Shown: piece after piece, positions 3,759 to 24,730 of the stretch
Position numbering within the stretch: the stretch's first letter is position 1
How the letters are laid out: the number at the start of each line of letters is the position of its first letter
From: a virus
Lineage: Duplodnaviria > Caudoviricetes
Reading direction: 5' to 3' (one strand)
IMG/VR virus record: IMGVR_UViG_3300022217_000059
Span: 1 to 38,739 of that record
Length of the DNA stretch: 38,739 nt
The notes under the pieces: generated by a model
Told to the model about the DNA's origin: nothing
Seen by the model: the letters and a program-made list of their open reading frames with translations, nothing else
Database searches by the model: none
Made by a program: the position numbers and the translations under genes

Positions 3759-4918
3759 TGGAGCGTGTACAGAATACTGAGAAGTTACCCGTAAAACTGT
3801 GGTTAGAGGACATAGAAGATGGTGCTATGAAACAAGCTATTAACTTAGCGTACCACCCCTCTGCATTTCACCACATAGTAATAATGCCTGACTCACATCG
3901 AGGCTATGGTATGCCTATAGGTGGTGTATTAGCCACAAGAGATACTGTTATACCTGAAGCAGTGGGTGTGGATATAGGTTGTGGTATGTGTGCTATTCCA
4001 ACAAGTATTATGACTCCTGATAAGGCCAAGCTACGCAGAGTAATGGAACTTGTTAGAGAGCGTGTGCCAGTGGGATTCTCACACCATGTAGAGAGACAGT
4101 CTGGTATGCCAAGCATAGTTGGTATTGGTGGAGATATAGTAGACCGAGAATATGAGTCTGCTACAAAACAGATAGGTACGTTGGGTGGTGGCAACCACTT
4201 CATAGAACTACAGATGGATGAGGAAGGTAGGATGTGGGTTATGATACACTCTGGCTCACGTAATATAGGCTATCAAGTAGCAAAGCATTATAAGGAAGTA
4301 GCTGATACCTTATGTAAGAAATGGTATCATAATGAACTTGTCAAGCAGAGGTTGTCGTTTCTGCCTATAGACTCAGATGAAGGACGCAGTTACTTGGCAG
4401 AGATGAAGTATTGTCTTGAATTCGCTAAGGCCAATAGAGCATTGATGTTATCCAGAGTGCTTGAGTCTATCGGTGAGGTATTTAGTAACGCAGAAGTAAT
4501 AACTCCTGCTATCAATAAGTGTCATAACTTCGTAGAACTGGAAAATCACTTTGGTAAGAACGTATGGGTACATAGAAAGGGGGCTACCAGAGCAAGAGAA
4601 GGAGAGATGGGTATTATACCTGGAAGTCAAGGTACAGCATCATATATCGTGAGCGGTAGGGGAGAAAGGGAGTCATTCACATCATGCTCTCATGGTGCTG
4701 GTAGAGTTATGAGTAGGAAACAAGCACAGAGAGAGCTATCAGTAGTGAGTGAAGTAGCTAAGTTGGATGCTATCGGTGTTATTCACTCCATAAGAGGGAA
4801 GAAGGACTTAGATGAAGCCCCGTCAGCCTATAAGAACATTGACGTAGTAATGGAGAATCAGAAGGATTTAGTGGAAATAGTCCGCAAACTAACACCCTTA
4901 GCAGTTATAAAGGGATAG
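3755..4918 (+). CDS. rtcB: RtcB RNA ligase (3'-phosphate/5'-OH)
   Basis: MPDSHRGYG, VGVDIGCG, GTLGGGNHF, HSGSR, HN, HRKGA, PGSQG, SCSHGAGR, DEAPSAYK. Confidence 0.96.
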   Translation: MMERVQNTEKLPVKLWLEDIEDGAMKQAINLAYHPSAFHHIVIMPDSHRGYGMPIGGVLATRDTVIPEAVGVDIGCGMCAIPTSIMTPDKAKLRRVMELVRERVPVGFSHHVERQSGMPSIVGIGGDIVDREYESATKQIGTLGGGNHFIELQMDEEGRMWVMIHSGSRNIGYQVAKHYKEVADTLCKKWYHNELVKQRLSFLPIDSDEGRSYLAEMKYCLEFAKANRALMLSRVLESIGEVFSNAEVITPAINKCHNFVELENHFGKNVWVHRKGATRAREGEMGIIPGSQGTASYIVSGRGERESFTSCSHGAGRVMSRKQAQRELSVVSEVAKLDAIGVIHSIRGKKDLDEAPSAYKNIDVVMENQKDLVEIVRKLTPLAVIKG

Positions 4919-4933
4919 GGAGTCGCTGATATA

Positions 4934-5407
4934 TCAGTCTAACTCCTCTTTGATATGCTTATTAAGTACATTTAACACTTGTGGAGCGATTACAGTGTTA
5001 CTGCCCTCTTTAAATATATTAGTTATAACAGTACTGGGCTGTGTTGAGGGTAGAAGTCCCAGTGCTTTCATTATATCTGTGCGTTGTTTGAAGGTTAAGT
5101 CCATGAACTTGTTAAGTATCTGTGCGTCTTGGAGTATCGGCGGTAATTTATCTTCCGGTAATTCTCCAGACACTACTTTAGCCACAAGGGTAGCAGTGCT
5201 AATATCCTGCTTAATTGTGTCTATAAGGTCAGGTAGACATTCAGTTAAGCGGAGTGCCTGTTCATGTATCTGGTCACGCTTAGCTTGTGACAGTCTCCAC
5301 ACTGATTTCTGTGAAGTACCTTCACCTTCTAGTTGGTCAGATACCTTCTTAGTAGACAGACCTGTAGCAAGTAGTTGTATAGCTTTATCTTCATTCTCTA
5401 GTTCCAT
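4934..5407 (-). CDS. N-terminal HTH protein (terminase-small-subunit-like or regulator)
   Basis: AIQLLATGLSTKKVSDQL...SQKSVWRL HTH pattern; own perfect promoter; ATG 5407. Confidence 0.65.
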   Translation of the reverse strand: MELENEDKAIQLLATGLSTKKVSDQLEGEGTSQKSVWRLSQAKRDQIHEQALRLTECLPDLIDTIKQDISTATLVAKVVSGELPEDKLPPILQDAQILNKFMDLTFKQRTDIMKALGLLPSTQPSTVITNIFKEGSNTVIAPQVLNVLNKHIKEELD

Positions 5408-5413
5408 ACCAAT

Positions 5414-5442
5414 ATTATAGCACAATTCCGTGTAAATGTCAA
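5414..5442 (-). promoter_or_regulatory. consensus sigma70 promoter, probably giving a leaderless mRNA
   Basis: TTGACA-17 nt-TATAAT with extended -10 TG; ATG 6 nt after the -10 box. Confidence 0.88.
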
Positions 5443-5490
5443 GTAAAAAGTGGGGGTATCATGTGTAAATGTGCAAAATGTAGAGAAGGA

Positions 5491-5518
5491 TTGACTAAAG
5501 ATAGGCCAATAATAGAAT
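5491..5518 (+). promoter_or_regulatory. possible sigma70 promoter, divergent from the previous one
   Basis: TTGACT-16 nt-TAGAAT upstream of the radical SAM gene. Confidence 0.45.
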
Positions 5519-5535
5519 TTGAATAGGGGGAGGGT

Positions 5536-6075
5536 ATGAATAAAGCCAGAGTTATTATCACTGAGAAGTGTGATAAGAAGTGTAAGTATTGTTGTAATAA
5601 GCAGGAGAATATAAAGTCTGTAATGCAACCGATAAGCTATATTGAGGATGTGTTAAAGTTTCAGCCTAACTGTAAAGAGGTTATGATTACTGGTGGTGAG
5701 CCTATGCTACGTCCTCACCTTGTTAAACAGATAGTTTTTAGCATGAAGAAGTGGAATAGTAGGTGGCGGAAGGATATAAAAGTCTATTTATACTCCGCTA
5801 TGTATACCCATCATCTGGGAGAAGTAATGCCATTTATAGACGGTTTGCAGTATACTCTACACACAAGTACAGATATGGATATGTACCGCTTTTATGAACT
5901 ACAGAGAGAACTGAGTAGGTATAAGTACAGTGTCAGGTCATTTAGGTTATATATTAGACAAAACATAACGGATATGATTAATATAAGACCGAGTTTATGG
6001 AATCGTGTAGAAGTGAAACCGTGGATAGTAGATTGCCCCCTACCTTCAGACGAGGAATTATTTGTGTTGCGTTAA
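5536..6075 (+). CDS. small radical SAM protein
   Basis: CDKKCKYC (CxxxCxxC) and ITGGEPMLR; 179 aa. Confidence 0.88.
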   Translation: MNKARVIITEKCDKKCKYCCNKQENIKSVMQPISYIEDVLKFQPNCKEVMITGGEPMLRPHLVKQIVFSMKKWNSRWRKDIKVYLYSAMYTHHLGEVMPFIDGLQYTLHTSTDMDMYRFYELQRELSRYKYSVRSFRLYIRQNITDMINIRPSLWNRVEVKPWIVDCPLPSDEELFVLR

Positions 6076-6099
6076 GTTGTTTAATCCTGACTGCGGAAT

Positions 6100-6128
6100 T
6101 TGACAAGTGTGGCGATTCGTGTTAGAAT
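6100..6128 (+). promoter_or_regulatory. sigma70 promoter
   Basis: TTGACA-17 nt-TAGAAT with extended -10 TG. Confidence 0.8.
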
Positions 6129-6183
6129 TTTAGAAATGGTCGGCTCGCCCTACAGATGAGTACGACTCAACAAGGAGGTTGAT

Positions 6184-6594
6184 ATGAGTAAAATACTGGT
6201 TGGAAAGATTATTAAAGAGATTAGGGTTGCAGAGGACAGAGGAGCAATATGTTTTGTAACAGACGATGGTGAGATTATAGCAAAGGCATATGGTGACTGT
6301 TGTTCTCACACATGGATTGAGCATATAGAGTTACCTGCTATGGGATTGCCAGCAGTAGTATCTTCTGTAGAGGATATTGATATGCCAGATTTAGGCTCCC
6401 CAGACGACTTCGATGTTATTGTTTATTATGGGTGTAAGATTATAACAGATAAGGGTGAGGTTGTTATTGATTATCGTAACTCATCAAACGGTTATTATGG
6501 TGGTAGTTTATCTTGGCCTGATGATTCCTTCTACGGAGGAGTATACGTGCAGAATAAATCTACAGAAAAGTGGGATGTAGTAAAAGAGGAGTAG
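6184..6594 (+). CDS. conserved-type phage hypothetical protein
   Basis: AAGGAGGT SD; GDCCSHTWIE and SNGYYGG motifs. Confidence 0.8.
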   Translation: MSKILVGKIIKEIRVAEDRGAICFVTDDGEIIAKAYGDCCSHTWIEHIELPAMGLPAVVSSVEDIDMPDLGSPDDFDVIVYYGCKIITDKGEVVIDYRNSSNGYYGGSLSWPDDSFYGGVYVQNKSTEKWDVVKEE

Positions 6595-6607
6595 AAAGGA
6601 GGTAAAT

Positions 6608-7201
6608 ATGCCAAGAGGAGATTCAATGTGGGTTAACGACAGTGTAACTGTTACCCTGCCTGACCCCACACCGACTACAACAAGTTACAGATATATTAGT
6701 TCTGTGCTTGGTGGGTCACAACCAGAACAACCAACAGACCCAACAACAGAAGGAAGGAGGAAGAGGATGAAGGTATTTAAACGTGGTATTAATGTAAGAG
6801 TTACTAAAGGAGGTGTAAATGAAGAGAGTTCTGGGAGGGGTAATAGACACAATTACACGAATGGTGAGATTTATACCATCTTTAAGATTGAAAGGGGTGA
6901 CCCTAGTATAACAAGCTACAGGTTGCGTTCTCTGGATGGTCAGTGGGAAGGCAACTGGATTAGCCAAGAAGATTTGGTTATCGCCAATAGGAAGGAGTTG
7001 AAGAAGATTTACTCTGAAATGCTTGCTTTCTCTACTAAAGAGGTTGAGAGGTTGGCGAAGAAGGTGGCGGTGATAGAAAAGTATGATAGTATCGAGGAGG
7101 AGGTGGCACATGAAATAGTCGCACTTGGTGGGGATGTTGATAAGGTCATTTCTTACCTTAAAGGCAATCCTGATATTGAGATAGTTGAACTCGACAGATA
7201 A
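6608..7201 (+). CDS. hypothetical protein (P/T-rich N-terminus, SH3-like core, coiled coil)
   Basis: AAGGAGGT SD; second in-frame SD + ATG at 6767. Confidence 0.75.
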   Translation: MPRGDSMWVNDSVTVTLPDPTPTTTSYRYISSVLGGSQPEQPTDPTTEGRRKRMKVFKRGINVRVTKGGVNEESSGRGNRHNYTNGEIYTIFKIERGDPSITSYRLRSLDGQWEGNWISQEDLVIANRKELKKIYSEMLAFSTKEVERLAKKVAVIEKYDSIEEEVAHEIVALGGDVDKVISYLKGNPDIEIVELDR

Positions 7202-7212
7202 GGAGGATTCAG

Positions 7213-8091
7213 ATGGGAGTTAAGAATTACGGGCATAAGCCCCAGCCTAAGTTCGACAAGGATTACAAGGAGAATGAGTTATTTCTCGGTATAGAATTGG
7301 AGTTAGAGTGCAAAGAGGAGAGAAGCACTGACTCTCTTGCTGATGTTGCTGAGAGAATGATGAACAAGGAAGTGTACTGCAAGAGTGATAGCTCAATAGA
7401 CTACGGATTTGAGATGGTGTCTCATCCCAAAACTATTGCCTATCATAGAAATGGTATGAAATGGTCAGAGACTCTGGAGTTTCTCAGGAAAGAAGGGTGT
7501 ACCAGCCACAATACAAGTACTTGTGGTATCCATGTACACTTCAATAATGAGTTTCTGTCTCCTTCCAAGCGTATCGCACTTGGGGTATTCTTCGCTAGGT
7601 ATGGCAAGAATATAGTGAGAATAGCTCGTAGGTACAGTGGTTTCGGTAAGATAGTGAAGATTGACAAGAAGAATCTGAAGAAGCCCATGCAGCATGGTAG
7701 ACAGGCTATCAACTTCGGTGGTAGGACTATTGAGATAAGAATCTTTAGGGGGTCTTTGGTGCGAGCTACCGTACTGGCAACCCTTGAGTTCGTTGACTCT
7801 ATCGCAAGGTTTGTCAAAGTAACTCCTGTGAAGACTCTTGTCAGAGGAGATGCGTGGAATGAGTATATTAAGTACGTCACCGCTAACTCAACTACTGAGG
7901 AGAAGGAGGGTAAGAGCTACAAGTACCGTGACTTGCTCCCCTACCTCAATTTGGTAAAGGCAGTAAAACCTCTCAAGATAGAGGAAGATAAGATTTACTT
8001 TAACAGAGGTAAGAGCGATACGATAAGTCTCAGGCATACTCATAAGAGAGACGACAGGGAAGTGTATAAACCCAAAACTTCAAGAAGATAA
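7213..8091 (+). CDS. putative COOH-NH2 amidoligase (glutamine synthetase/GCS fold)
   Basis: GIELELE, DSSI, GFEMVSHP, TCGIHVH, TIEIRIFRGSL. Confidence 0.88.
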   Translation: MGVKNYGHKPQPKFDKDYKENELFLGIELELECKEERSTDSLADVAERMMNKEVYCKSDSSIDYGFEMVSHPKTIAYHRNGMKWSETLEFLRKEGCTSHNTSTCGIHVHFNNEFLSPSKRIALGVFFARYGKNIVRIARRYSGFGKIVKIDKKNLKKPMQHGRQAINFGGRTIEIRIFRGSLVRATVLATLEFVDSIARFVKVTPVKTLVRGDAWNEYIKYVTANSTTEEKEGKSYKYRDLLPYLNLVKAVKPLKIEEDKIYFNRGKSDTISLRHTHKRDDREVYKPKTSRR

Positions 8092-8100
8092 GGAGGAACT

Positions 8101-8982
8101 ATGTGTGTTATTGTTAGTAAGGGGGCTGGAATTGAACTGCCTGAGAAAGATGTATTACAACAGTGCTTTAATCACAACGATGATGGTGCTGGATTGATGA
8201 CTCTGAAGGATGATAAGGTTCTTATCAAGAAGGGGTTTATGACGTGGGATGCCTTTGAAGAGGAGCATGAAAGGTTGGTTACTGATAGGATTATTACTGC
8301 GGATTTACCTGTAGTCTATCACTTCAGGATTGCCACCAATGGTAAGACTATGGGGGGAAACTGCCACCCTTTCCCTGTTTCTAAGAGTCTTAGGGCTTTG
8401 AGAGAAACGGATATGCTTACCGAAGCAGGTATCGCACACAATGGAATACTATCTACCTATGGTGAGGGTAGGACTGGGGAGTGGAGTGACACTATGGACT
8501 TCATAAGGAAAGAGATTGCAACACGTCCCAGTATTAAACAAATAGTACTGTCTGGTTTTGAGAATGACGACGACCTAGATGTACTTGATGACAAACTAGG
8601 TTACGGCAACAAGATGGCGATACTTACCCCTGACTCTCTTGTGCGGTTTGGTGCCTCCAGTTGGAAGGAGGATAAAGGTATCCATTTCTCCAACCTGAAC
8701 CATAAGAGGAGTAAGAGGGCTGGTTGTGGTACTGCAAGTGTCAACTATAGTGGGTATACCAAAGGAACCTATGTACTTACTAGAGAGGAGAAGGTTAAAG
8801 AACATTTCCGTGAATTCCTTGATTCCTTTTGGACTGAGTACACCAACTCTAAGGGGCTTTGTGACTTCGACAAGGCATTCGCAAAGGCATGGGGAGAGTT
8901 CATTAGTAAGGCAGATACCGATACCTTCTTTGAACTCTATGATGTGTTAAGGTCTTACAGATATGGAGAGTACCTATCATGA
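8101..8982 (+). CDS. class II (Ntn) glutamine amidotransferase
   Basis: N-terminal MC, NDDGAG, HFRIATNG, NCHPF, HNGIL, SDT. Confidence 0.9.
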   Translation: MCVIVSKGAGIELPEKDVLQQCFNHNDDGAGLMTLKDDKVLIKKGFMTWDAFEEEHERLVTDRIITADLPVVYHFRIATNGKTMGGNCHPFPVSKSLRALRETDMLTEAGIAHNGILSTYGEGRTGEWSDTMDFIRKEIATRPSIKQIVLSGFENDDDLDVLDDKLGYGNKMAILTPDSLVRFGASSWKEDKGIHFSNLNHKRSKRAGCGTASVNYSGYTKGTYVLTREEKVKEHFREFLDSFWTEYTNSKGLCDFDKAFAKAWGEFISKADTDTFFELYDVLRSYRYGEYLS

Positions 8983-9590
8983 CTAAAAATAACGGGATAT
9001 CTGTGTGTGATTATTGCGGTGTTTACCAGTACACTTACTTTATGAACTTCGGCAACCATACCGCTAGGTGTTGTTTTAGATGTAAGTGTATTCATGAGAC
9101 TTATAATCATGAAGAGAGGAGGTGTAAATTGTGTCCAAAGGATGTAGTAAGACATATTCCAGAAGTAGGAGATTTGGTTGTTAGCAGAGTTACTAACACT
9201 CCCTACCTTTGTCACTCAGTAGATGAAGAGTGGATTCACTTGTATGATGTGAAGAAGCTGGGAAAGAAGGTGAAGGTTAAAATAGGTATCAACTTGCCTA
9301 CAAACTTACGTCTTATCGCAAGGAATGTAATAACCAAAGGAAAGGAGCAGATAAAGAAGTGGGCTGGCTATGAGGGTAGGGCAGTGGAAAGTATGGATGG
9401 TGTGACATACTTCCACCCGATAAAGATTGAACAGGTAAGTAAGAAGAAGTTTAATATGGTGCTTAACCGAATATCTGGAAGGGTAGAAAGGTATAGCAAT
9501 ATAAAGCTGAAAAAGGTTAGGCGAATCCTTCGCCAGTGGGATAGTTTAGGGATGCGAGTGTGTGAACTTGATTCTCTAAATTGGAGGTGA
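8979..9590 (+). CDS. hypothetical protein, Cys-rich N-terminus plus PEVGDLV SH3-like domain
   Basis: CDYC..CCFRCKC..CKLC; ATGA coupling. Confidence 0.7.
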   Translation: MTKNNGISVCDYCGVYQYTYFMNFGNHTARCCFRCKCIHETYNHEERRCKLCPKDVVRHIPEVGDLVVSRVTNTPYLCHSVDEEWIHLYDVKKLGKKVKVKIGINLPTNLRLIARNVITKGKEQIKKWAGYEGRAVESMDGVTYFHPIKIEQVSKKKFNMVLNRISGRVERYSNIKLKKVRRILRQWDSLGMRVCELDSLNWR

Positions 9591-9594
9591 ATAT

Positions 9595-10098
9595 ATGAGC
9601 AGTGAGTATGGCACTGTCGGAAGTAGTGGGCTAAAGTTTGATATTATTAATATAGACTACCGTAAGAATGAGCTAACTCTTAAGCCTATAACTATAAACC
9701 TAAAGCATCCTGCAAAGAGCGAGGTTAACTATGGTAAAAGATTAAGGGTTCGTATCTCTGAGAACTATGTATTTGACTTCCAAACTAGAGGACTGTTAGA
9801 CCCAGTGGAAGGTTGTGACTGTAGTAATTGTAGTGCAGTTAGGTCGGGGGAAGCAGAAAGCAATGCAAAGTACATACTCTGGCTACCTACCTCTGGTTCT
9901 GGATACGGTGACGAATATTCATTTATAGTGCCTTTTACTATATTGGATGATTTTAGGGAAGCGGTATATTATGTGAATAAGAAGTATGGGTACAAAAAGG
10001 TTGATTGTGGTTGTCGTTCTGCTGTGCTGTGCAAGATGCATAGTAATAGAGAGAGTATAACTTTTAGAGGTGGAGATGCAAAAATGGCAAGGATGTAA
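9595..10098 (+). CDS. Cys3His-tag family protein 1
   Basis: near C-terminus CGCRSAVLCKMHSNRESITFR. Confidence 0.8.
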   Translation: MSSEYGTVGSSGLKFDIINIDYRKNELTLKPITINLKHPAKSEVNYGKRLRVRISENYVFDFQTRGLLDPVEGCDCSNCSAVRSGEAESNAKYILWLPTSGSGYGDEYSFIVPFTILDDFREAVYYVNKKYGYKKVDCGCRSAVLCKMHSNRESITFRGGDAKMARM

Positions 10099-10801
10099 AG
10101 AGTGTACGTTGTTGGGGTCTGAGTATGTTCCACCCACACTACTACAAGATAGTGACCTACTAATAATAGGACAGAATCCTGGGGAGATGGAGGTGGAAGC
10201 TGGGTATCCTTTCTGTAGTAAAGGTAAATGTGGAAGGGAACTTAGAAATAAGCTGAGAGGTGTTAAGTTCAAATACAGTATATGTAATGCGGTTGGGTGT
10301 TATACTGAGAGTAATAGAATACCCTCATCTAAAGAGATTGCTAATTGTCTGTTTAAGGTGGCGGAAGCTATAAACTATACCAACCCCAAACTTATACTTG
10401 TGCTTGGCAAACCAGCACTTAAATCAGTTACTGGTTTAACTACAGCTATTACTAAGTTGAATGGGCATATCCTTGATGACTATAAAATACCAGTAGCTGT
10501 GTCTGTTCATCCTAGTTATGGTGTAAGAGGTAACACTAAGGTTTGGGAACAAGGGATACTTCCTGCTCTAAGGTATTTTGATAAAGAGAGGCCAGTGGAG
10601 TATGAGGAGACTACAGAGCTACCTGTTATGAAGGAGGCTGGCTTTGATATAGAAACCTCCTCTCTCAAACCAATAGAGAAGGGTAGACTAAAGTGTTTCA
10701 GTGTATCAGATGGTAAAGTAACTAAATTTGTGGAGGTGGAAAATGCCGTTAGGGAGAGTGTGGCCAAGACCAATAGTAGCGAGAAGAGGGAGGAGGATTG
10801 A
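10070..10801 (+). CDS. family-4-like uracil-DNA glycosylase fused to the ExoI fragment of a PolA 3'-5' exonuclease
   Basis: CKEC, IIGQNPGEME, NAVGC, RIPSSKEIANC, PKLILVLGKPA, VHPSY; then AGFDIETSSL. Confidence 0.88.
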   Translation: MEMQKWQGCKECTLLGSEYVPPTLLQDSDLLIIGQNPGEMEVEAGYPFCSKGKCGRELRNKLRGVKFKYSICNAVGCYTESNRIPSSKEIANCLFKVAEAINYTNPKLILVLGKPALKSVTGLTTAITKLNGHILDDYKIPVAVSVHPSYGVRGNTKVWEQGILPALRYFDKERPVEYEETTELPVMKEAGFDIETSSLKPIEKGRLKCFSVSDGKVTKFVEVENAVRESVAKTNSSEKREED

Positions 10802-11060
10802 ACCTCCTTTCAAAGTAGGGGATAGAGTAAGATACTTTAATAGAAAAGCTAGGTATTTAGGTAAACCTGCTAGGATAATTAACATAACGCAATATCCTTG
10901 GGCTACTAATGTAACACTTAGATATGAGGGTAGTGGAATGTGCTCATACTACCACACAACAAAATACTTAGTTAAGTTGAAGAAGAAGATTGAGAGAATC
11001 ACCTGTTGTAAGGGAGCTGTGTCTTGCTCCAAGCATAGGAGCGTAACATTTAGAATCTGA
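10743..11060 (+). CDS. Cys3His-tag family protein 2
   Basis: GGAGGT SD; FKVGDRVR; ends CCKGAVSCSKHRSVTFRI. Confidence 0.85.
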   Translation: MPLGRVWPRPIVARRGRRIEPPFKVGDRVRYFNRKARYLGKPARIINITQYPWATNVTLRYEGSGMCSYYHTTKYLVKLKKKIERITCCKGAVSCSKHRSVTFRI

Positions 11061-11082
11061 CTGAGAGAATGAAAGATTTTGC

Positions 11083-11111
11083 TTGACAAACGAGTTCAAA
11101 TATGGTATAAT
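11083..11111 (+). promoter_or_regulatory. consensus sigma70 promoter
   Basis: TTGACA-17 nt-TATAAT with extended -10 TG. Confidence 0.9.
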
Positions 11112-11158
11112 AGGTTTTGCTAGGCGGGTAGGATTGCTCCCCTGCAATAGGAGGATAT

Positions 11159-11485
11159 ATGGTTAGAGTTGGAGATATAGTAAGAGTAAAGGAGAATGTG
11201 GATGAAGTGCCTATCTCTCTTACACACCGTGAATTTATAGGTATGAGAGGTAAGGTACTTAAAGTATATGGTACTGGTGCTTTTAAGATGCTAGACATTT
11301 ACTTCGAGGACTTAGCAGACTATGATGATGGTCATGAGCTGGATGGTTCTTATGGATTTAGGTATGGTGGGTGGACGCTTCCCAGTACAGAAGTTAAATT
11401 AGCTAGGACTAGTCACAGCTACTGCACTTCTTGTAAAGGAGCTGTAGCTTGTACTGACCACAGGAGTATGGAGTATAGGGGGTGA
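11159..11485 (+). CDS. Cys3His-tag family protein 3
   Basis: VRVGDIVRV; ends CTSCKGAVACTDHRSMEYRG. Confidence 0.88.
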   Translation: MVRVGDIVRVKENVDEVPISLTHREFIGMRGKVLKVYGTGAFKMLDIYFEDLADYDDGHELDGSYGFRYGGWTLPSTEVKLARTSHSYCTSCKGAVACTDHRSMEYRG

Positions 11486-11486
11486 T

Positions 11487-11756
11487 ATGTTTAAAGTTGG
11501 TGATAACATTATAATGAGGAAGAATAGAGGCAGTGTTGTGTTCCCAGATGGTAGTGAAGCGATAGTTATACGCTCAAAGTACAAAAAAGATGGAGAAACT
11601 GTTATAGATATAAAGTTTACTGAGGGCAATGGAGCTGTACACAAGGGAGAGCGTGTATGGGGGATTGGGGTACATAGATTTGAGAGATGTCAGCCTTGTA
11701 AATGTAGGGGGGCAGTTTCTTGTAAGAGACACCGAGTAGTAGAGTTCAGGAGGTAG
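11487..11756 (+). CDS. Cys3His-tag family protein 4
   Basis: FKVGDNII; ends CKCRGAVSCKRHRVVEFRR. Confidence 0.88.
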   Translation: MFKVGDNIIMRKNRGSVVFPDGSEAIVIRSKYKKDGETVIDIKFTEGNGAVHKGERVWGIGVHRFERCQPCKCRGAVSCKRHRVVEFRR

Positions 11757-11757
11757 T

Positions 11758-12027
11758 ATGATTGAAGTCGGAGATATAATTGTAGCTATAAATTGTAATA
11801 AGGATATTCTTGGCTCGTGGTGCAAGGTAACTAAGATAGTAAAGAAACAAAAGTTTGGAGCATCTACTGCTGAGGCGGAGTACTTCGGAGATTGGACTAC
11901 TCCAGTTGGGAATCATCTTGTTGGTTGTCTTGAGGAGAGTAAAGTTAGGTTAGTCGAGACTATACCTTGTGATTGTTACGGTGCAGTCTGCTGTAGATTA
12001 CATAAAGATATCGAATTTAGGGCTTGA
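11758..12027 (+). CDS. Cys3His-tag family protein 5
   Basis: IEVGDIIV; ends CDCYGAVCCRLHKDIEFRA. Confidence 0.88.
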   Translation: MIEVGDIIVAINCNKDILGSWCKVTKIVKKQKFGASTAEAEYFGDWTTPVGNHLVGCLEESKVRLVETIPCDCYGAVCCRLHKDIEFRA

Positions 12028-12052
12028 CATCTGTCGGCAAATGTGCTATAAT
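12024..12052 (+). promoter_or_regulatory. consensus sigma70 promoter whose -35 box overlaps a TGA stop
   Basis: TTGACA-17 nt-TATAAT with extended -10 TG. Confidence 0.9.
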
Positions 12053-12071
12053 GTTTTAGGAGGTCGGGAAA

Positions 12072-12380
12072 GTGCCAAAATTTAAGGTTGGTGATTTGGT
12101 CAGGCTTAGAGAAGATGTAATTTTCCACCATAAATGCAGGGAAGGTAAGATAATAAGGATATATGAAAAAACTGGTACTGACTTCTGTGTTATGTTTGAA
12201 GGGTGGAGAGACGGGCATGATGGGTCTTTAGCTGGAGATGTGAACTGGCAGTATAAAGACTCAAGAAACTGCCGTTGGTTTACTGCACGCTCACTAATAC
12301 TAATTACTATAGAATCTTGCATCGGATGTTATGGTGCTGTGTCCTGTAAAAATCACAGGGAAATAGAATTTAGGGTTTAA
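12072..12380 (+). CDS. Cys3His-tag family protein 6
   Basis: FKVGDLVRL; ends CIGCYGAVSCKNHREIEFRV. Confidence 0.88.
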   Translation: MPKFKVGDLVRLREDVIFHHKCREGKIIRIYEKTGTDFCVMFEGWRDGHDGSLAGDVNWQYKDSRNCRWFTARSLILITIESCIGCYGAVSCKNHREIEFRV

Positions 12381-12403
12381 CAACAATACTTAGGGGGTTG
12401 GGA

Positions 12404-12751
12404 ATGGCGGCTACAATTAGAGTTGGTGACTTAGTATCTTATGTAGCAACAGTAGGAAGCAACCGCTATGCTGTCATACGTGGTAGGAATAAAGATAGTA
12501 TGCCAGAGTATAGGCACGAACCAGAGTGTGACAGACACCAGTACTGGGGTGCCTGGGCTAGTTCTGCTAAAGAAGCACTTAAAGAGTACAAAAATAGCAA
12601 GGCGCAGGTAGGATGGATGCCTAATCATAAACTCACTGTTATAAGAAATGTAAGGGTGTACAATACTAGGTGTGGCTGTTACGGTGCGGTGTCGTGCAAA
12701 CAACATAGAGATATAGAATTCAGAGGGGGTGGTGATGTACATATTTGGTAG
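12404..12751 (+). CDS. Cys3His-tag family protein 7
   Basis: IRVGDLVS; ends CGCYGAVSCKQHRDIEFRGGGDVHIW. Confidence 0.88.
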   Translation: MAATIRVGDLVSYVATVGSNRYAVIRGRNKDSMPEYRHEPECDRHQYWGAWASSAKEALKEYKNSKAQVGWMPNHKLTVIRNVRVYNTRCGCYGAVSCKQHRDIEFRGGGDVHIW

Positions 12752-13400
12752 AGTTCAGCCTACTACTAGGGCTATTGCAGAGGCTATTCCTTGTTTAAGA
12801 GGACGGAGACTAACCAGAATACGTAGGAGAAGGTTGGTAGTTAATTGGGGTCAGTTCCGAGATTTTAGTGACTGTTCCCGTGTGCTTAATGAGAATGCTG
12901 GGAGGAATAAGTACACAGAGCTTAGCTTGTTACATAGGGCTGGAGTACCAGTACCTAGATTTGGTAGAGATATTCCAGACTATGAGTATCTTGGTAGGCG
13001 GAATTCTCATACCAGAGGTAGAGACATTGAGCTTAACGGAGATGGAGACTTCTTCACCGAGCTTATATATAAGAAAGGAGAGTATAGAGTACACGTATTG
13101 GGAGATGACGCACCAGTAATAACCAAGAAGAAGAAGATGAGGGAGGATGCAGACTCTCTGGTGTGGAGTCATGGGAATGGATGGAAACAGATTAGGTATA
13201 GAGAAGGAGGTAGGTATTATGCGAAGTTACAGGAGGTAGGACACGATGCAGTTAAGGCGTTGGACTATGATTTTGGGGCTGTTGATATTGTCATTGATAG
13301 GGATACTGAAAGGGCTATAGTTCTTGAGGTAAACTCTGCTCCTGGACTCATAGAAGATAGGGTGGATGAGTATGTCGAATACTTCAGAGGAGAGGAATGA
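12735..13400 (+). CDS. ATP-grasp ligase (RimK-like, phage type)
   Basis: VVNWG, NKY, EYRVHV, DFGAVDI, LEVNSAPG. Confidence 0.9.
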   Translation: MYIFGRVQPTTRAIAEAIPCLRGRRLTRIRRRRLVVNWGQFRDFSDCSRVLNENAGRNKYTELSLLHRAGVPVPRFGRDIPDYEYLGRRNSHTRGRDIELNGDGDFFTELIYKKGEYRVHVLGDDAPVITKKKKMREDADSLVWSHGNGWKQIRYREGGRYYAKLQEVGHDAVKALDYDFGAVDIVIDRDTERAIVLEVNSAPGLIEDRVDEYVEYFRGEE

Positions 13401-13642
13401 AGATAGGGGACAGAGTAAAATACTGGGGAGGTTGTAGTGAGTGGTATGGACAATCCTGTACTATAGTTAAAACTTCCATAATTAGTTCTTGCTTCGTCAT
13501 TAAATTTGGAGATGGAGAGACTTGGACTTGTAACAAATCCTACTTAAGTGCGTTATACCAGAATATAATAGATTGTGGTTGTAAAGGTGCTGTTGCTTGT
13601 CTACAACACAGAGACATGGAATACAGAGGAGGTTATGTATGA
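13397..13642 (+). CDS. Cys3His-tag family protein 8
   Basis: KIGDRVKY; ends CGCKGAVACLQHRDMEYRGGYV. Confidence 0.88.
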   Translation: MKIGDRVKYWGGCSEWYGQSCTIVKTSIISSCFVIKFGDGETWTCNKSYLSALYQNIIDCGCKGAVACLQHRDMEYRGGYV

Positions 13643-13854
13643 AGAAAGCGATTAGTGTTGGGTTCAGTTTTATGCCGGAACCCTACGAACCAATAAAGAT
13701 TAATGTTTCTATTGAAAGGGAGGAGAATGAGGTAGATACTATAGCACTGGCAGGAGAAGTGAAGAAGGCACTTCAGGATGTATCTGAGGAGTTTGTAGCT
13801 TCTATTCAGAAACTAAAGAAGGAGATTATGGACGAACTCTCTGACGAGGAATAA
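13639..13854 (+). CDS. hypothetical protein
   Basis: GAGGAGG SD, ATGA overlap; YEPIKINVSI followed by a helical C-terminus. Confidence 0.75.
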   Translation: MKKAISVGFSFMPEPYEPIKINVSIEREENEVDTIALAGEVKKALQDVSEEFVASIQKLKKEIMDELSDEE

Positions 13855-13959
13855 GAAATGGAGGTGGGGCATCATGTATTTCGATGCGGGGATTGTAGTA
13901 AGTATACTATTGTTTGTTATAGGTCTATTCTGGATGCAAAGTAGACAAAGGAGGTAGAT

Positions 13960-14094
13960 ATGGTACTGCGTTGTAGTTGTAAACACGAGTATCAGGATAA
14001 GAAGTACGGCAAAGGTATGAGGTATCACAACGAAACGAGAAAGATACAACAGCCATACAGGTGCACTGTATGTGGAACCGGAAGGAGTAAGTAA
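13960..14094 (+). CDS. 44-aa Zn-binding miniprotein (not in ORF track)
   Basis: AAGGAGGT SD; CSCKHEYQDKKYGKGMRYHN...RCTVCG. Confidence 0.75.
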   Translation: MVLRCSCKHEYQDKKYGKGMRYHNETRKIQQPYRCTVCGTGRSK

Positions 14095-14360
14095 TGGGTA
14101 AGAGCGTTAAGTTAGGTAGGGGTTGGAAGGCTGCTGAGGGCAAGTCTTGGGTTGGTACTGTTAAACTTAGTAGGGCGGAGGTAATCTCTGCACTGGAGCA
14201 GACAGATGATAATGAGGATATTTCACTCATGATTTTCACCAACGACTTCAAGAAGAATGATAAGTCACCAGATTTCTACTTGAACTTCTCACCGAGAGAC
14301 GAGAAGAAGTCAGTGTCGAAGCAGATTGTAGATAGCACTAACCGCAAGTCTATATTTTAA
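14094..14360 (+). CDS. small putative ssDNA-binding protein (DUF736-like)
   Basis: GxGW...GTVKL...FTNDFKKNDKSPDF pattern; start of the replication block. Confidence 0.5.
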   Translation: MGKSVKLGRGWKAAEGKSWVGTVKLSRAEVISALEQTDDNEDISLMIFTNDFKKNDKSPDFYLNFSPRDEKKSVSKQIVDSTNRKSIF

Positions 14361-14369
14361 GGAGGATTA

Positions 14370-14549
14370 ATGAAAATACGTGAGATAGCAACGATAGGTA
14401 TATTCTTTGTGTTTGTTGTAGGTGCTGTGATTGGTGCGGTTACAGGTGATGAGTTCAATGTACCTGAGAGAGAGTATCAGGCGGTAACCTACGATGAAGA
14501 AGGTGTTAAGGTATTCCTAGACGGTATTGATTGTGAAAGAGTAGAGTAG
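14370..14549 (+). CDS. 59-aa membrane-anchored protein (not in ORF track)
   Basis: AAGGAGG SD; N-terminal TM helix IGIFFVFVVGAVIGAV. Confidence 0.7.
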   Translation: MKIREIATIGIFFVFVVGAVIGAVTGDEFNVPEREYQAVTYDEEGVKVFLDGIDCERVE

Positions 14550-14557
14550 TTGTCACC

Positions 14558-14651
14558 TGTGGTGGGGTGGCGTTGTAGCCTGACTATGAGAGGGATACGA
14601 CCTACAAAGTCCGATAGCCCTTACGTCGCAGTACAAACTGCCTCCACCACA
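14558..14651 (+). other. long intergenic imperfect hairpin (candidate structured RNA)
   Basis: TGTGGTGGGG/CTCCACCACA outer stem, with inner TTGTA/TACAA, TGAC/GTCG, GAGGG/CCCTT and GAC/GTC pairings. Confidence 0.5.
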
Positions 14652-14670
14652 CCCCCAACAAGGAGATAGT

Positions 14671-14793
14671 ATGTCTATTAAAGTTAAGTGTAATATATGT
14701 GATTTTACTGGGGAGTTGTGTAGTGAGACTACTACCGAGATATTCTTTAGGCACTGCCCCTGTTGTGGGGAGAAAGGATTGTTACCAGTATGA
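14671..14793 (+). CDS. 40-aa Zn-ribbon miniprotein (not in ORF track)
   Basis: AAGGAG SD; CNIC...CPCCG. Confidence 0.7.
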   Translation: MSIKVKCNICDFTGELCSETTTEIFFRHCPCCGEKGLLPV

Positions 14794-14963
14794 ATTATAG
14801 GTGTTCTTATTGCGGAGAAGTCTACTGGGATGGCTTAGAATTAACTTTGCAAGTAAGTGAGATGGCAACACATTTACTTATTACCCACGAGGTAGAACCA
14901 GAAAGAATACTAGAAGCACTACTAGAAGCACTAGTAGATAGTGACCATATAGAAAGGGTATAA
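14790..14963 (+). CDS. C2H2-like Zn-finger miniprotein
   Basis: CSYC...HLLITH; ATGA coupling. Confidence 0.65.
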   Translation: MNYRCSYCGEVYWDGLELTLQVSEMATHLLITHEVEPERILEALLEALVDSDHIERV

Positions 14964-16087
14964 TGCTTAATACAGATTTAGAGTTCAGTTTCTTACGCCT
15001 GTGCTTTGATAAGCCTAGTCTATGGGTATTGGAGTTTACTCCTACTGATAGACAGGTTGATTGGGTGCGGTTACAGGTGGAGAAGTATCGGCGGAAGTAT
15101 AATAAGTACCCTGAGTTCAATGTATTCCTTGACTACTTAAGGGGCAGGTGCGAGTCACAGCAGTACGAGTTTGTTGTAGAGAAGTTGAACCATCCTCTTG
15201 AAGCAGAGTATGTAGAGGATAAAGTTATTAGATTCTTAGAGAGAACTAGGCTTGAGAAAGCTATGTTTGATGCAGAAGTACTGATAAGGGCAGGGAAGGT
15301 TGACGAAGCTAAACTGATACTACTTAAGGGGACGGAGTTAATTGCTCCAAAGTGTATAGATTATGATGAGTATGTTGAGGAAGAGGAGCTTATACATCGT
15401 ATTCCTACTGGTCTTGGTACTATTGATGACACGCTAGAGGGGGGACTACCCAGACACAACTTAGCTCTATTGGTTGGGCCGAAAGCTAGTGGTAAGAGTC
15501 TCACTATGGTTAATCTTGGTGCGAATGCTAGGATGCTTGGCTACAATATCCTACACATATCCTTTGAAGATAGCATCAGACAGATAAGGAAGAGGTATAG
15601 TAAGAAGTTTGGCACCTATAAGGACGACTGGGGTAAGTTAATGATTAATGAGTTCCCATCCGGTGGTGCTACTGTAGCTGACTGTGAAGCATTGACTTCC
15701 TTGTATAGACCTGATGTAGTTATTGTGGATTACCTTAATGAGATGGGTAGTGGGAAGGATAGAGCTAACAGAAGTGAGGAGTTGGGAGATTCTGCTAGAG
15801 GATTGAGGGGTATGAGTACTAGGCACAACTGTACAGTTATTACCGCACAACAGGCTGGCAGGAGTGCTAAGTTCTCAGAGGAGAATGTATCAGCAGAAGA
15901 TGCGTTCTGGTCTTATGAGCCCTCACAGGTAGCAGATGTAGTAATTACTCTTAACCAGACTAGAGACGAGAAGAGAGATAATCACATTAGACTGGTGTTA
16001 GATAGGAATAGGAATGGAGAGGATGGATTAGAGTACAAGTATAATATAGATTATAGTATGATGCGGATGAAGGAGGTGGGGTTATGA
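14963..16087 (+). CDS. SF4 (DnaB-like) replicative helicase
   Basis: IPTG..ID..L.GG, Walker A GPKASGKS, ISFE, VIVDYL, TAQQ, RNRNG. Confidence 0.9.
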   Translation: MLNTDLEFSFLRLCFDKPSLWVLEFTPTDRQVDWVRLQVEKYRRKYNKYPEFNVFLDYLRGRCESQQYEFVVEKLNHPLEAEYVEDKVIRFLERTRLEKAMFDAEVLIRAGKVDEAKLILLKGTELIAPKCIDYDEYVEEEELIHRIPTGLGTIDDTLEGGLPRHNLALLVGPKASGKSLTMVNLGANARMLGYNILHISFEDSIRQIRKRYSKKFGTYKDDWGKLMINEFPSGGATVADCEALTSLYRPDVVIVDYLNEMGSGKDRANRSEELGDSARGLRGMSTRHNCTVITAQQAGRSAKFSEENVSAEDAFWSYEPSQVADVVITLNQTRDEKRDNHIRLVLDRNRNGEDGLEYKYNIDYSMMRMKEVGL

Positions 16088-16266
16088 AGGTAAGCGAACT
16101 AATAGATATACTGAAGGAGAGAGTATTTCACACTGGAGATGTGGATATAAGAGTAGAAATTCCATATAAGAATGGTAATGTTCTTGATATAGATATTGAA
16201 GATGTTATTAATCAGGAAGGATATTACCACACAATAACATTACTTGGAGATGGAGAGTGGAGATAA
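16084..16266 (+). CDS. hypothetical protein
   Basis: AAGGAGGT SD; MKVSELIDIL start typical of small phage proteins. Confidence 0.7.
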   Translation: MKVSELIDILKERVFHTGDVDIRVEIPYKNGNVLDIDIEDVINQEGYYHTITLLGDGEWR

Positions 16267-17015
16267 GGCAGAACTGCTGGATGTGTCCAGTTAAGGGGAG
16301 TACCCCAGATACTGGAGGACACCTATACATAAATACAGTTAAGAATGTATACCACTGTAAGCGGTGTGATGCTAGAGGTGTATGGGAGCCAGGTGCGTTC
16401 CCTGTTGAACAGTGGGTTAGGACAAAGACTGATTATAGTTTTGTTGATTTGTACAGATGGGATAAGAAGACTCCTTACTTAAAAGGTAATACATACCATA
16501 ATAAAGTAAAAGAGTATACCCTCGCTAGATTACCAGAAGAAATAGTATTAGAGAGAACTAAGTGGAGTCCACAAATAGTTAATAGAGTATTCTTCCCAGT
16601 GTATAGTGAAGGTAAGGTAGCTATGTGGCAAGGAAGGAGTATAGATGACAGTAAACCTAGATACTTATCTCACGGTAACGTATCACACTATCTTTACAAC
16701 CTTGAGTATACTACTGATGACTGGTGTACTCTCTGTGAAGGGCCATTTGATGCACTTGCTAGTCCTAATGGTGTCGCTCTATTTGGGAAGAGCATTTCGG
16801 AAGTGCAGAGCATGATACTCACCTCCAAGTTCAAGACTATATACTGGGCATTGGATGGTGATACTAGTAAACAGAAACGGGTGGCTGAACAGAAGCATAA
16901 TATCAAGCAGTTTGTAAAGGTTATTGATGTACCTATGGGTGTTGATGAAGACCCCTCCTCAATAGGAATGGAAGGAATGAAGGAGAAAATATGGCAACTC
17001 TCGCAACCGACATGA
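16257..17015 (+). CDS. DNA primase (Zn finger + TOPRIM)
   Basis: CWMC...YHCKRC, WQGR, CEGPFDA, ALDGD, EDPS. Confidence 0.9.
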   Translation: MEIRQNCWMCPVKGSTPDTGGHLYINTVKNVYHCKRCDARGVWEPGAFPVEQWVRTKTDYSFVDLYRWDKKTPYLKGNTYHNKVKEYTLARLPEEIVLERTKWSPQIVNRVFFPVYSEGKVAMWQGRSIDDSKPRYLSHGNVSHYLYNLEYTTDDWCTLCEGPFDALASPNGVALFGKSISEVQSMILTSKFKTIYWALDGDTSKQKRVAEQKHNIKQFVKVIDVPMGVDEDPSSIGMEGMKEKIWQLSQPT

Positions 17016-17212
17016 CTCCTTATGAAGAGGAGATAGTAGAGAAGATACTACTAGAATTTGATAAGCACGAGTTGCGTACAGTAGAGATATGGACTGATAT
17101 GGTGGTAGATGAGACTATGGTCACTGTCACCTATCAGCCAGGGGAAGGGATAGAGGTAAACCGCAGGAATTATATTTATAAAGAGGAGAAGTTATGTCCG
17201 ATAGATTCATAA
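16991..17212 (+). CDS. acidic hypothetical protein
   Basis: AAGGAG SD; overlaps both neighbours. Confidence 0.65.
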   Translation: MATLATDMTPYEEEIVEKILLEFDKHELRTVEIWTDMVVDETMVTVTYQPGEGIEVNRRNYIYKEEKLCPIDS

Positions 17213-17970
17213 AGATACATGATAATATAGATAAGATACTTACTAGGTCTGGTGGACTTCCTCGTGGTCACTTGATTGAATTCTATGGGCCAGACGGGGA
17301 AGGCAAGTCCACCTTTGCATTACTGTGCATCGCTGCTGCACAAGCACAAGGTATTCAGTGTGGGTTGGTGGACGTGGAGGACTCCTTCGTACCAGAGTAT
17401 GCAGAACACTACGGTGTATGCGTGGAGAAACTTGAACATTATATACCAGATAGTGGAGAGGAGGCATTGAACCGTGCTATTAAGATGTGTGAGGAAGGTT
17501 ATGGGTTGGTGGTTATTGATAGTGTGGCAGGTCTTGTACCGGAGTCTTCAGTTGGGGAAGAGGTGGAAACTGGTGGACAATACGCCCCAATCGCTTCCCT
17601 TCTATCCAGAGCGTTACCTAAACTTAGGAGACAAGCACGGCTTGGGAACACCTGTGTTCTACTACTCAACCAAGTTAGAGCAAATATACAAAGGTTCGGA
17701 ATGGGGCCAGCTACAACAAGTTCTAGTGGTTACGCCCTTAAGCACTTCACAAGTGCAAGATTTGAGATTAGGAAAATCAGTTGGATTAAACAGGGCACTG
17801 AAGTAATAGGTTATAATATAAAGATACGTGCACCTAAGAAGAATAGACTGGCAGTACCTAATAGAGATGGTACATTAGAGATAATATGTGATATGGATGC
17901 CCCTCCTTTGGAGGAGATTAATAAGCGTAAGCAAAAGAAGATAGAACCCATTACATTTAAGGAGGAGTGA
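17194..17970 (+). CDS. recA: RecA-like recombinase (short; lacks the canonical N- and C-terminal domains)
   Basis: GGLPRG..IEFYGPDGEGKST, VDVE, VVIDSVAGL, LNQVR, GYALKH, KNR. Confidence 0.9.
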   Translation: MSDRFIKIHDNIDKILTRSGGLPRGHLIEFYGPDGEGKSTFALLCIAAAQAQGIQCGLVDVEDSFVPEYAEHYGVCVEKLEHYIPDSGEEALNRAIKMCEEGYGLVVIDSVAGLVPESSVGEEVETGGQYAPIASLLSRALPKLRRQARLGNTCVLLLNQVRANIQRFGMGPATTSSSGYALKHFTSARFEIRKISWIKQGTEVIGYNIKIRAPKKNRLAVPNRDGTLEIICDMDAPPLEEINKRKQKKIEPITFKEE

Positions 17971-18161
17971 TGCGGTGTGTATGTGGGGTAACACTTAGAG
18001 ACTATGAAGATGAGTACTGTGGTCAATGCCGCAGGTCTATAAGAACGACTCTAAAAGAGATACTGGAGGGGACTAATGGAGAGGACGAACGAAGAAGCCA
18101 CACCACCTATATTAAAGGACAAGAGGAAGATGGGCAAGGCAGCGAAGAGGAAGGGAAGTAG
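17967..18161 (+). CDS. small Zn-finger protein
   Basis: CVCG...YCGQC. Confidence 0.55.
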   Translation: MMRCVCGVTLRDYEDEYCGQCRRSIRTTLKEILEGTNGEDERRSHTTYIKGQEEDGQGSEEEGK

Positions 18162-18564
18162 GTATGAGCTTAAGGTCGCTAAGACGCTTACTAAACACAC
18201 TAATTTTACATGGAGGCGGACTCCTTATAGCGGAGCTGGTCATATTGCTGGTGATGTGTTTGCTACTGACTTTGAATTTCCTTGGGTTGTAGAGCTGAAA
18301 GATAGGAAGGATACATCATTACTTAAAGTATTTAAGAATCCTGAGTGTATTGCTAAGTGGTTGGAGGATAAGACTATACTTGTCTTTAATGATGGAGGTA
18401 CTGATGTGGTGGTGGCCCCGTGCGAATACCCAACTAATTGTAGACCTAACTTCGGAGCCTACTTAAAGAATAGTAAGGGCGAGTTTATTATGTTTACAAT
18501 GAAGTTATTTTGTGATACAATAAATAGGGAGTATGGGGATGAACGGACAGAAGGTACGACATAG
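18130..18564 (+). CDS. Holliday junction resolvase (PD-(D/E)xK type)
   Basis: KRKGSRYELKVA, RTPYSGA, GDV, VELK. Confidence 0.8.
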   Translation: MGKAAKRKGSRYELKVAKTLTKHTNFTWRRTPYSGAGHIAGDVFATDFEFPWVVELKDRKDTSLLKVFKNPECIAKWLEDKTILVFNDGGTDVVVAPCEYPTNCRPNFGAYLKNSKGEFIMFTMKLFCDTINREYGDERTEGTT

Positions 18565-18766
18565 TATATTAGAAGCCGTATTCAATATAATAGTCGGTAT
18601 GGGTATAAATATGATAGCACAGCTAATTATATTCCCAGCTTATGGTATACGTATAAGCTTAGAAACTAATGTGTATATTGTGTGTTGGTTTACTGCCGTA
18701 TCTCTAGCAAGAAGCTTTGTATTGAGGAGAGCGTTTAACTGGTACACTGTAAGACAGGAGGAATGA
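18533..18766 (+). CDS. two-TM phage membrane protein
   Basis: Q..RHSILEAVFN.IVG...SLARSFVLRRAFN pattern. Confidence 0.75.
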   Translation: MGMNGQKVRHSILEAVFNIIVGMGINMIAQLIIFPAYGIRISLETNVYIVCWFTAVSLARSFVLRRAFNWYTVRQEE

Positions 18767-19041
18767 TGGGCGAGTTAGAACCATGTGAAAAATGTGGCGG
18801 GTATGGAGTAGTGGAAAAAACTACTCCACTAGTTACTTGTCAAAGTTGTAAGCGGACTTTTGATACCCCTCAAGGACTAGGCCAACACTTTCGTTATGGG
18901 TGTAAAGTAAGGAAAGCAAAGTGTTCGCACAACTGGAAGTATGAAAAGAAGGCTCAAAAATGTTTACACGAGACAAAGTTTGGTGCCCCTAGATATGAGA
19001 TATGCACTAAATGCAAGGACAAGAGACTTGTGCCTTGCTAG
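18763..19041 (+). CDS. multi-Zn-finger small protein
   Basis: CEKCGG, CQSCKRTFDTPQGLGQHFRYGC, CSH...CTKC. Confidence 0.7.
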   Translation: MMGELEPCEKCGGYGVVEKTTPLVTCQSCKRTFDTPQGLGQHFRYGCKVRKAKCSHNWKYEKKAQKCLHETKFGAPRYEICTKCKDKRLVPC

Positions 19042-19059
19042 CATCCAAAGGAGGAAGAA

Positions 19060-19239
19060 ATGAGTGAAGAGAAGTGTGAAAGTTGTGGTCATGATATGAA
19101 GCATCATACTACAAGTGGGTGTATTGGTTCGTTCCCTAATGGCGTTAAAGGATACTCTGAGGATGAAGTATTCTACGGTGAATGTCATTGTTACATACAT
19201 CTTGAAAGGCTAAGAAAGGAAGCTAGGAATGAAGTTTAA
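19060..19239 (+). CDS. 59-aa Cys/His miniprotein (not in ORF track)
   Basis: AAGGAGG SD; CESCGH...H....C...CHC. Confidence 0.7.
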   Translation: MSEEKCESCGHDMKHHTTSGCIGSFPNGVKGYSEDEVFYGECHCYIHLERLRKEARNEV

Positions 19240-21321: not shown

Positions 21322-21322
21322 C

Positions 21323-23059: not shown

Positions 23060-23070
23060 AATGTGAGAGT

Positions 23071-24695: not shown

Positions 24696-24698
24696 AAC

Positions 24699-24727: not shown

Positions 24728-24730
24728 TAG

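Follow-up and report, generated by a model that had tools for sequence, protein, structure and literature searches.

Why should eight small genes of one phage, set close together, end in nearly the same peptide of cysteines and histidine? The question is raised by an array at positions 9595-13642 of IMG/VR record IMGVR_UViG_3300022217_000059. The whole record of 38,739 nt (estimated completeness 73%) was analysed and is referred to as the window (G000 where genomes are compared). Proteins of G000 are also on record on a 54,122-nt contig. The record derives from a tailed phage whose - strand encodes the capsid, adaptor and tail proteins and whose + strand encodes helicase, primase, RecA, ribonucleotide reductase, polymerase and nucleases. 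The array consists of eight co-oriented + strand genes (i.e. g1-g8), each with a Shine-Dalgarno site. The explanation that we tentatively prefer, at somewhat less than an even chance, is that the common C-terminal end is a portable, metal-bound docking tail carried on diversified heads and directed to one common partner. By analogy, it would work like the SecA and YecA metal-binding domain (MBD), without being a member of that family.

The tails are ~20 residues long and share the motif C-x(0-2)-C-x-[GS]-A-V-x-C-x-x-H-[RKS]-…-h-[ET]-[FY]-R, which lies in frame and at or near the 3' ends of the eight open reading frames (ORFs). The ligand spacing is C-x(0-2)-C-x5-C-x2-H, the first Cys standing 0, 1 or 2 residues ahead of the second. 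The tail alignment comprises 18 columns, seven of them invariant, and the residues C, A, V, C, H and R are invariant in all eight proteins and in an outside protein, P0012. Three proteins (i.e. g1, g7 and g8) extend past the final Arg, by 9, 8 and 4 residues, which is mere overlap with the next gene. The array is not uninterrupted, as a uracil-DNA glycosylase (UDG)/exonuclease ORF (10076-10801) and an ATP-grasp ORF (12735-13400) lie inside it. The tail genes are as follows.

9595-10098, + strand: g1, 167 amino acids; head not related to those of g2-g8; tail 10006-10068 (first Cys to Arg), with three residues inserted
10743-11060, + strand: g2, 105 amino acids; basic extension and putative SH3/KOW-like head; tail 11004-11054 with adjacent Cys-Cys
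11159-11485, + strand: g3, 108 amino acids; tail 11423-11479; head without Cys
11487-11756, + strand: g4, 89 amino acids; tail 11697-11750
11758-12027, + strand: g5, 89 amino acids; tail 11968-12021
12072-12380, + strand: g6, 102 amino acids; tail 12318-12374; Atlas model resembling SH3/KOW-like barrels
12404-12751, + strand: g7, 115 amino acids; tail 12671-12724
13397-13642, + strand: g8, 81 amino acids, the shortest member; tail 13574-13627

The most likely start of g2 is the ATG at 10743, in which case its GD strand follows a 22-residue extension overlapping the UDG ORF.

The reality of the array was examined using a tail profile and a pattern search. Against the six frames of the window, the profile recovered exactly g1-g8 with self-trained scores of 40.6-54.7 bits, the next match scoring -1.4 bits. 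A looser pattern lacking GAV was found eight times in the window and in none of 200 windows simulated with an order-3 Markov model. Both results bear out an earlier note, made from the letters of this DNA, which had described eight genes with a near-identical C-terminal motif. An F/Y-R near the C-terminal end also occurs in 4 of the 36 other + strand genes of the window. ORF 3531-3758, a candidate ninth copy, ends in C-x-C-K-G only, scored 4.0 bits and was not counted; this end directly precedes the ribosome-binding site of RtcB and may be a truncated tail or chance.

Codons at the shared tail residues were compared with codon usage. Identical codons were observed for 72 of 128 two-fold (76.6 expected), 27 of 80 four-fold (26.1 expected) and 13 of 35 six-fold (10.6 expected) comparisons. 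As codon identity matches the codon-usage expectation, the likeness of the tails resides at the peptide level and reflects peptide-level selection; the earlier note had reached the same view from synonymous codon differences. The 60-74% DNA identity reported by a repeat finder arises because the peptide is conserved. A DNA repeat or an array of recombination-site cassettes was rejected, there being no nucleotide conservation beyond the need of the peptide. No Rfam family and no tRNA were found in the window, and no RNA dataset was among those listed as containing the stretch. One assembled contig of run X1 covers 8500-15000 and also 9500-24800, without joints and with a single base difference, which speaks against misassembly. 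This run, a sediment metagenome, is the sole listed run containing the stretch and may be the source sample, and hence may not be independent.

Head and tail similarities were then set against each other for eight proteins, with g1 left out. Head z-score and tail identity showed a Spearman rho of -0.21 over 28 pairs (one-sided P = 0.87 for a positive link). Thus g6 and g7 have 15 of 18 tail positions in common with a head z of 1.8, whereas g3 and g6 have 9 of 18 with a head z of 6.4. The neighbours g5, g6 and g7 carry one tail type on dissimilar heads, and g3 and g6 carry the same head type with different tail types. This mismatch fits an exchange of tails between neighbouring genes, as judged from the alignments. 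The heads have no conserved Cys/His column, that of g3 being entirely without Cys, and so do not complete the putative metal site. With a tail on the unrelated head of g1 and head similarity that does not track tail similarity, the modular layout put forward by the earlier note is supported.

Seven heads (g2-g8) open with a [VI]GD strand, as had been noted from the letters. In leave-one-out head profiles, g2, g3, g6 and g7 beat all 500 shuffles, g5 and g4 stood at 1 and 4 of 500, and g8 and P0012 at 26 and 28 of 500. The g1 head scored like shuffles (226 of 500), and by this measure is something other than the g2-g8 fold; no usable structure match for g1 was obtained in the Atlas search. Once the first strand was removed, no head was better than 35 of 500 shuffles. 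The middles of the heads could not be aligned, as had also been stated: the best of 28 pairs reached a z of 2.8 and none of 10 group-to-group profile comparisons beat column shuffles. The proposal of interchangeable heads therefore stands in part, for the g1 head is unrelated, but six of the seven GD-strand heads score above shuffles against the others and most look like one diverged fold.

The fold of the heads was assessed using family profiles and models. The Pfam family SH3_15 matched two of the eight proteins at E 0.015-0.018, below cut-off, and uL24 was reached at E 0.48-1.7 with the family profile. An Atlas model of g6 (predicted template modelling score 0.63) gave template modelling scores of 0.50-0.55 against rows for uL24, CAP-Gly and the Mind-bomb SH3, none of which reached the naming bar; a single-sequence model of g6 had a predicted local distance difference test score (pLDDT) of 36. 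In the model of g8, five strands fall within residues 6-46; the pLDDT is 68-81 over residues 1-50 and the tail is of low confidence. Fold searches with the g8 model gave no clear match (best Z 3.8; no E below 0.001). In PHROGs, the weak matches are limited to residues of the heads (for g8, to four families with 63-77 positions at E 0.023-0.1), which fits heads existing elsewhere without the tail. From these profiles and models, all under every naming bar, the heads of g2-g8 are probably small SH3/KOW-like beta-barrels of one diverged fold. By eye, ORFs 1782-2420, 6608-7201 and 8979-9590 also have barrel-like G-D/G-I opening strands and no tail; they matched the head profile at E 0.29 or worse.

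The earlier note had recognized the tail from no described family, and this was upheld in each collection searched. No Pfam family covered the tail when the eight proteins and eight tails were scanned at E up to 10, a scan in which HMMER filters drop most matches above ~0.1. The best zinc-finger match, zf-C5HC2, concerned one of the eight tails at E 0.033, below cut-off. No PHROGs, NCBIfam or PADLOC family covers the tail, nor does any PDB sequence, the sole match being a chance lipase (E 0.24). A hidden Markov model of the tails, the search suggested in the earlier note, retrieved 10 proteins among 1,835,955,588 cluster representatives, namely the eight own proteins, P0011 and P0012; at this database scale, a 32-position profile needs ~35 bits, and more distant members can be missed. 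P0011 (E 3e-5) was dropped, being a repetitive 254-residue product without the G-A-V and F/Y-R positions. P0012, a protein of 82 residues, comes from a 2,156-nt contig; its opening strand is barrel-like and it ends in a complete tail. On sequence, it is the only credible outside member found among these ~1.84 billion proteins, making nine known tail proteins in total. When 5.8 billion clusters were searched by words, the eight own proteins and P0012 were recovered among 122 candidates; another search gave five own proteins among 696. No description of the motif or of such an array was found in the literature, most subscription papers lying outside the search.

Nucleotide searches gave a similar picture. 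With tblastn, g6, g7, g8 and P0012 had matches only at E 0.6-9 in 50,697 phage records, none at the tail Cys and His together, and the best match examined was an unrelated protein. Exact degenerate DNA patterns of the tail hit 1, 6, 0 and 3 loci in viral contigs, 12 in prokaryote genomes and 13 stretches in metagenome contigs, three of these from the window's own contig. The 32 non-self loci were judged to be chance, as none has a head plus a tail. Scans for related loci with the full alignment, the ATP-grasp protein, P0012 and the polymerase found nothing.

A search with the capsid protein identified 80 related viral loci (L037-L116) of 51-68% identity. These point to an abundant uncultured phage group, yet the capsid had no match among the 50,697 annotated phage records. 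The tail profile matched none of the 80 capsid-related records, including the five that are at least 90% complete, as against eight matches in the control, G000. In the nine longest relatives, taken whole, the best tail score was 8.2 bits, and a search for an analogous array with another shared end gave 0-3 shared-end pairs each versus 22 in the window. In this test, G034 alone has the replication arm in common and most other relatives match in virion genes only; the comparison that counts for absence is therefore with one genome, G034. This genome, though complete and syntenic, lacks tail genes, making the array accessory. With eight copies in G000 and none in 80 related records, the array is, on these sequence comparisons, a private, lineage-specific expansion.

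The array also contains promoters and genes without tails, and one related gene piece lies further downstream.

10076-10801, + strand: UDG ORF, a family-4 uracil-DNA glycosylase and the first part of a proofreading exonuclease; between g1 and g2; no tail
11083-11111, + strand: sigma-70-type promoter, perfect consensus (12 of 12) with a 17-nt spacer and TG; upstream of g3
12024-12052, + strand: second sigma-70-type promoter, perfect consensus with TG; -35 box overlapping the g5 stop codon
12735-13400, + strand: ATP-grasp, a RimK-like ligase between g7 and g8; no tail
21509-23059, + strand: C-terminal piece of the family A DNA polymerase, which is split; listed for context, outside the set of tail genes

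The two promoters inside the array are two of the three perfect sigma-70 consensus promoters of the window, and looser matches occur at chance level (15 found, 14.8 expected). The third accompanies a lone 163-residue ORF on the - strand (4934-5442; promoter 5414-5442), which is conserved in G034, there at the edge of the virion arm.

The UDG ORF and the polymerase ORF align end to end on one 797-residue UDG-polymerase of G034, matching residues 48-288 and 294-797; by this alignment, the UDG ORF is the N-terminal piece of a split DNA polymerase. The family A polymerase is broken inside the proofreading exonuclease, with the UDG and the first exonuclease motif in one piece and the remainder 10.7 kb downstream. 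One X1 contig bridges both pieces. Thus, g2-g8 and the ATP-grasp gene fill the slot of the G034 polymerase body. No split polymerase with UDG in a phage was found in the literature search. An accessory block absent from G034 encodes RtcB RNA ligase, a short radical S-adenosylmethionine (SAM) protein, an amidoligase and a glutamine amidotransferase (3755-9590), together with the ATP-grasp ligase, which is displaced into the array (12735-13400). The ATP-grasp end and g8 start (13377-13406) resemble the g8 end and next start (13619-13648), with 70% identity over 30 nt, as an insertion at ribosome-binding-site microhomology might leave. A 1,659-residue probable virion or ejection protein on the - strand (24731-29710) has counterparts in G034 and G064 across the C-terminal half.

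Under the docking explanation, the ~20 residues of the tail would fold around a metal ion bound by the invariant Cys/Cys/Cys/His. The metal could be other than zinc, since the same ligand set binds iron or a 2Fe-2S cluster in SecA MBD, IscR and CDGSH proteins. Metal binding alone would not require G-A-V and h-E-F/Y-R, and we infer from these conserved non-ligand residues a shared binding surface. Through it, all eight proteins would dock onto one common partner, and the heads would bind different targets. Host-type promoters and a position in the replication arm suggest early expression, and the accessory, lineage-specific character suggests a role in host takeover; an anti-defence role is conceivable. 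Duplication, together with tail exchange between neighbours, probably enlarged the array. Several observations weigh against this docking explanation. Alignment of whole heads gives z 5.0-6.4 for four pairs, which is what ordinary old paralogues would show, and seven heads share the opening strand. The head-tail mismatch comes from eight proteins and 18 columns, seven of them invariant, and thus has low power. The low confidence of the tail, in a metal-free model built on an alignment of eight rows, supports independence weakly. The invariant Arg codon serves as a ribosome-binding site in five of eight genes, so that part of the 'surface' conservation may be that constraint. As none of the 80 related records carries the tail, they offer no basis for naming a conserved candidate reader gene.

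An alternative that we consider unlikely, but of real weight, is a lineage-specific paralogue expansion in which a barrel plus metal finger was duplicated repeatedly and the tail, as a finger serving structure or generic nucleic-acid binding, keeps its residues for the sake of folding and has no common partner. The whole heads of g2-g7, which rank at 0-4 of 500 shuffles against the others, are in keeping with such descent, as are the same two-part layout of P0012, the basic character of six of the eight members (isoelectric points 8.2-10.9), the KOW/uL24-like resemblance and the precedent of zinc-ribbon expansion in Bacillus phage G. Descent of whole genes accounts poorly for the g1 tail on an unrelated head and for tail types that follow neighbourhood, not head type. 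The earlier note had named alignment throughout, as in ordinary paralogues, as the outcome that would speak against its own tag reading; the four head pairs go some way towards this, but the likeness is confined to the first strand. An improbable alternative is a metal-bridged clasp, in which the first two Cys and the Cys-x-x-His would belong to different sites completed in trans, giving combinatorial homo- or hetero-oligomers. Cross-brace fingers such as AN1 and B-box offer a parallel. The variable first-Cys spacing (0-2) and the lack of head ligands leave the geometry open, and shared promoters would provide co-expression; nevertheless, four ligands suffice for a single site, and the weak zf-C5HC2 match is the only one of the tails to a Pfam zinc finger.

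In a cis-acting translational element, the tail would couple or gate translation of the next gene during its own synthesis, perhaps by metal level. In five of the eight genes, including those preceding the UDG piece and the ATP-grasp ligase, the invariant Arg codon starts 10-14 nt ahead of the following start codon and provides the ribosome-binding site for it; the codon is AGA/AGG in all eight. However, AGA/AGG makes up 75% of Arg codons here (P ~0.10 for eight of eight), and g2, g5 and g6 have complete tails, the start codons that follow them lying at distances of 107, 53 and 32 nt. Translational coupling hence does not explain the motif, and the folded heads are left unexplained; this alternative is very improbable. 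An equally slim chance is given to the tail as an address for a phage enzyme (i.e. a tag marking substrates of the ATP-grasp, amidoligase or radical SAM protein) or as a signal for packaging of the kind known from the capsid targeting sequence of T4. The ATP-grasp gene lies within the array, the amidoligase and glutamine amidotransferase genes just upstream and the radical SAM gene at 5536. Against this, the same amidoligase, amidotransferase and ATP-grasp set is carried without tails by LUZ24-like phages and by the relatives G027 and G062, which have no tails. Nor does packaging suit an array in the replication arm, behind host-type promoters and opposite the virion genes.

Returning to the docking tail, its last codons would help the array to grow by providing whichever gene follows with a ribosome-binding site. 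An extended version, to which we assign a clearly minor share of probability, is a portable metal-dependent address tag that doubles as a genetic cassette end: the peptide would dock swappable small-barrel binders on one host machine, the DNA would supply the next ribosome-binding site so that tagged genes insert without polarity, and the build-up would mark the point where the UDG-polymerase broke into two genes separated by 10.7 kb. Should the tail prove to be a docking module, a 20-residue metal-dependent interaction motif new to science would be at hand, one pull-down would reveal the host or phage hub addressed by eight heads, and the locus would be a compact case of how phages assemble modular host-takeover kits. 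The array also provides a clean experiment of nature on whether terminal tags common to phage miniproteins are address labels or fold cores.

Known systems were compared with the array by ligand spacing and layout. Post-SET, SWIM, AN1, B-box and ribosomal L36, considered for their spacings, were not found in the Pfam scan of proteins and tails. CDGSH/NEET proteins and IscR have the same set of three Cys and one His. CDGSH iron-sulfur proteins are described as first mis-annotated as a zinc finger, with the consensus C-X-C-X2-(S/T)-X3-P-X-C-D-G-(S/A/T)-H (PMC5859297), which the tail does not match, and the 2Fe-2S site of IscR, a helix-turn-helix regulator, as CX5CX5CX2H (PMC3754957). The latter ends with the tail's C-x5-C-x2-H spacing, so that the last three ligands agree, but the first spacing differs, no regulator family was matched in Pfam or NCBIfam, and the DNA-binding body of IscR is absent from the tail proteins. 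Stand-alone phage SH3/KOW-like miniproteins resemble the heads in the [VI]GD opening strand and in weak profile and model similarity, but the matched families cover head residues only and none the tail.

Expansion and tagging have precedents in phages. Bacillus phage G has a private expansion of ~35 zinc-ribbon copies (PMC7824862). Like that expansion, the array comprises many small, here predicted, metal-binding paralogues private to one phage lineage; in contrast, the putative metal site is a short Cys3His segment appended to a barrel-like head, and the phage measures roughly 54 kb. The eight proteins matched no zinc-ribbon core family in Pfam or PHROGs, and their ligands are confined to the last 20 residues. 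T4 internal proteins likewise carry a constant short tag on variable small phage proteins. Their capsid targeting sequence is an N-terminal, cleaved 10-residue propeptide (PMC9026906); unlike this virion-packaged tag without metal ligands, the tail is C-terminal and its genes lie outside the virion arm, and membership was rejected.

The best-documented parallel is the SecA-type MBD, a 22-residue Cys3His domain common to SecA, YecA/AscA and YchJ that docks on SecB and ribosomes (10.1101/613315; 10.1101/2020.07.21.215244). Membership of the SecA MBD/SEC-C family was rejected, as its CXCX8C[HC] spacing differs from the C-x(0-2)-C-x5-C-x2-H of the tail and none of the eight proteins or tails matched the Pfam family in the filtered scan at E up to 10. 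SecA-type domains are spread over bacterial chromosomes, whereas eight tails are clustered in one phage. Both are C-terminal, of ~20 residues, with three Cys and one His, and sit on unrelated bodies. The tail motif appears undescribed, and the kind of arrangement appears to be one already known.

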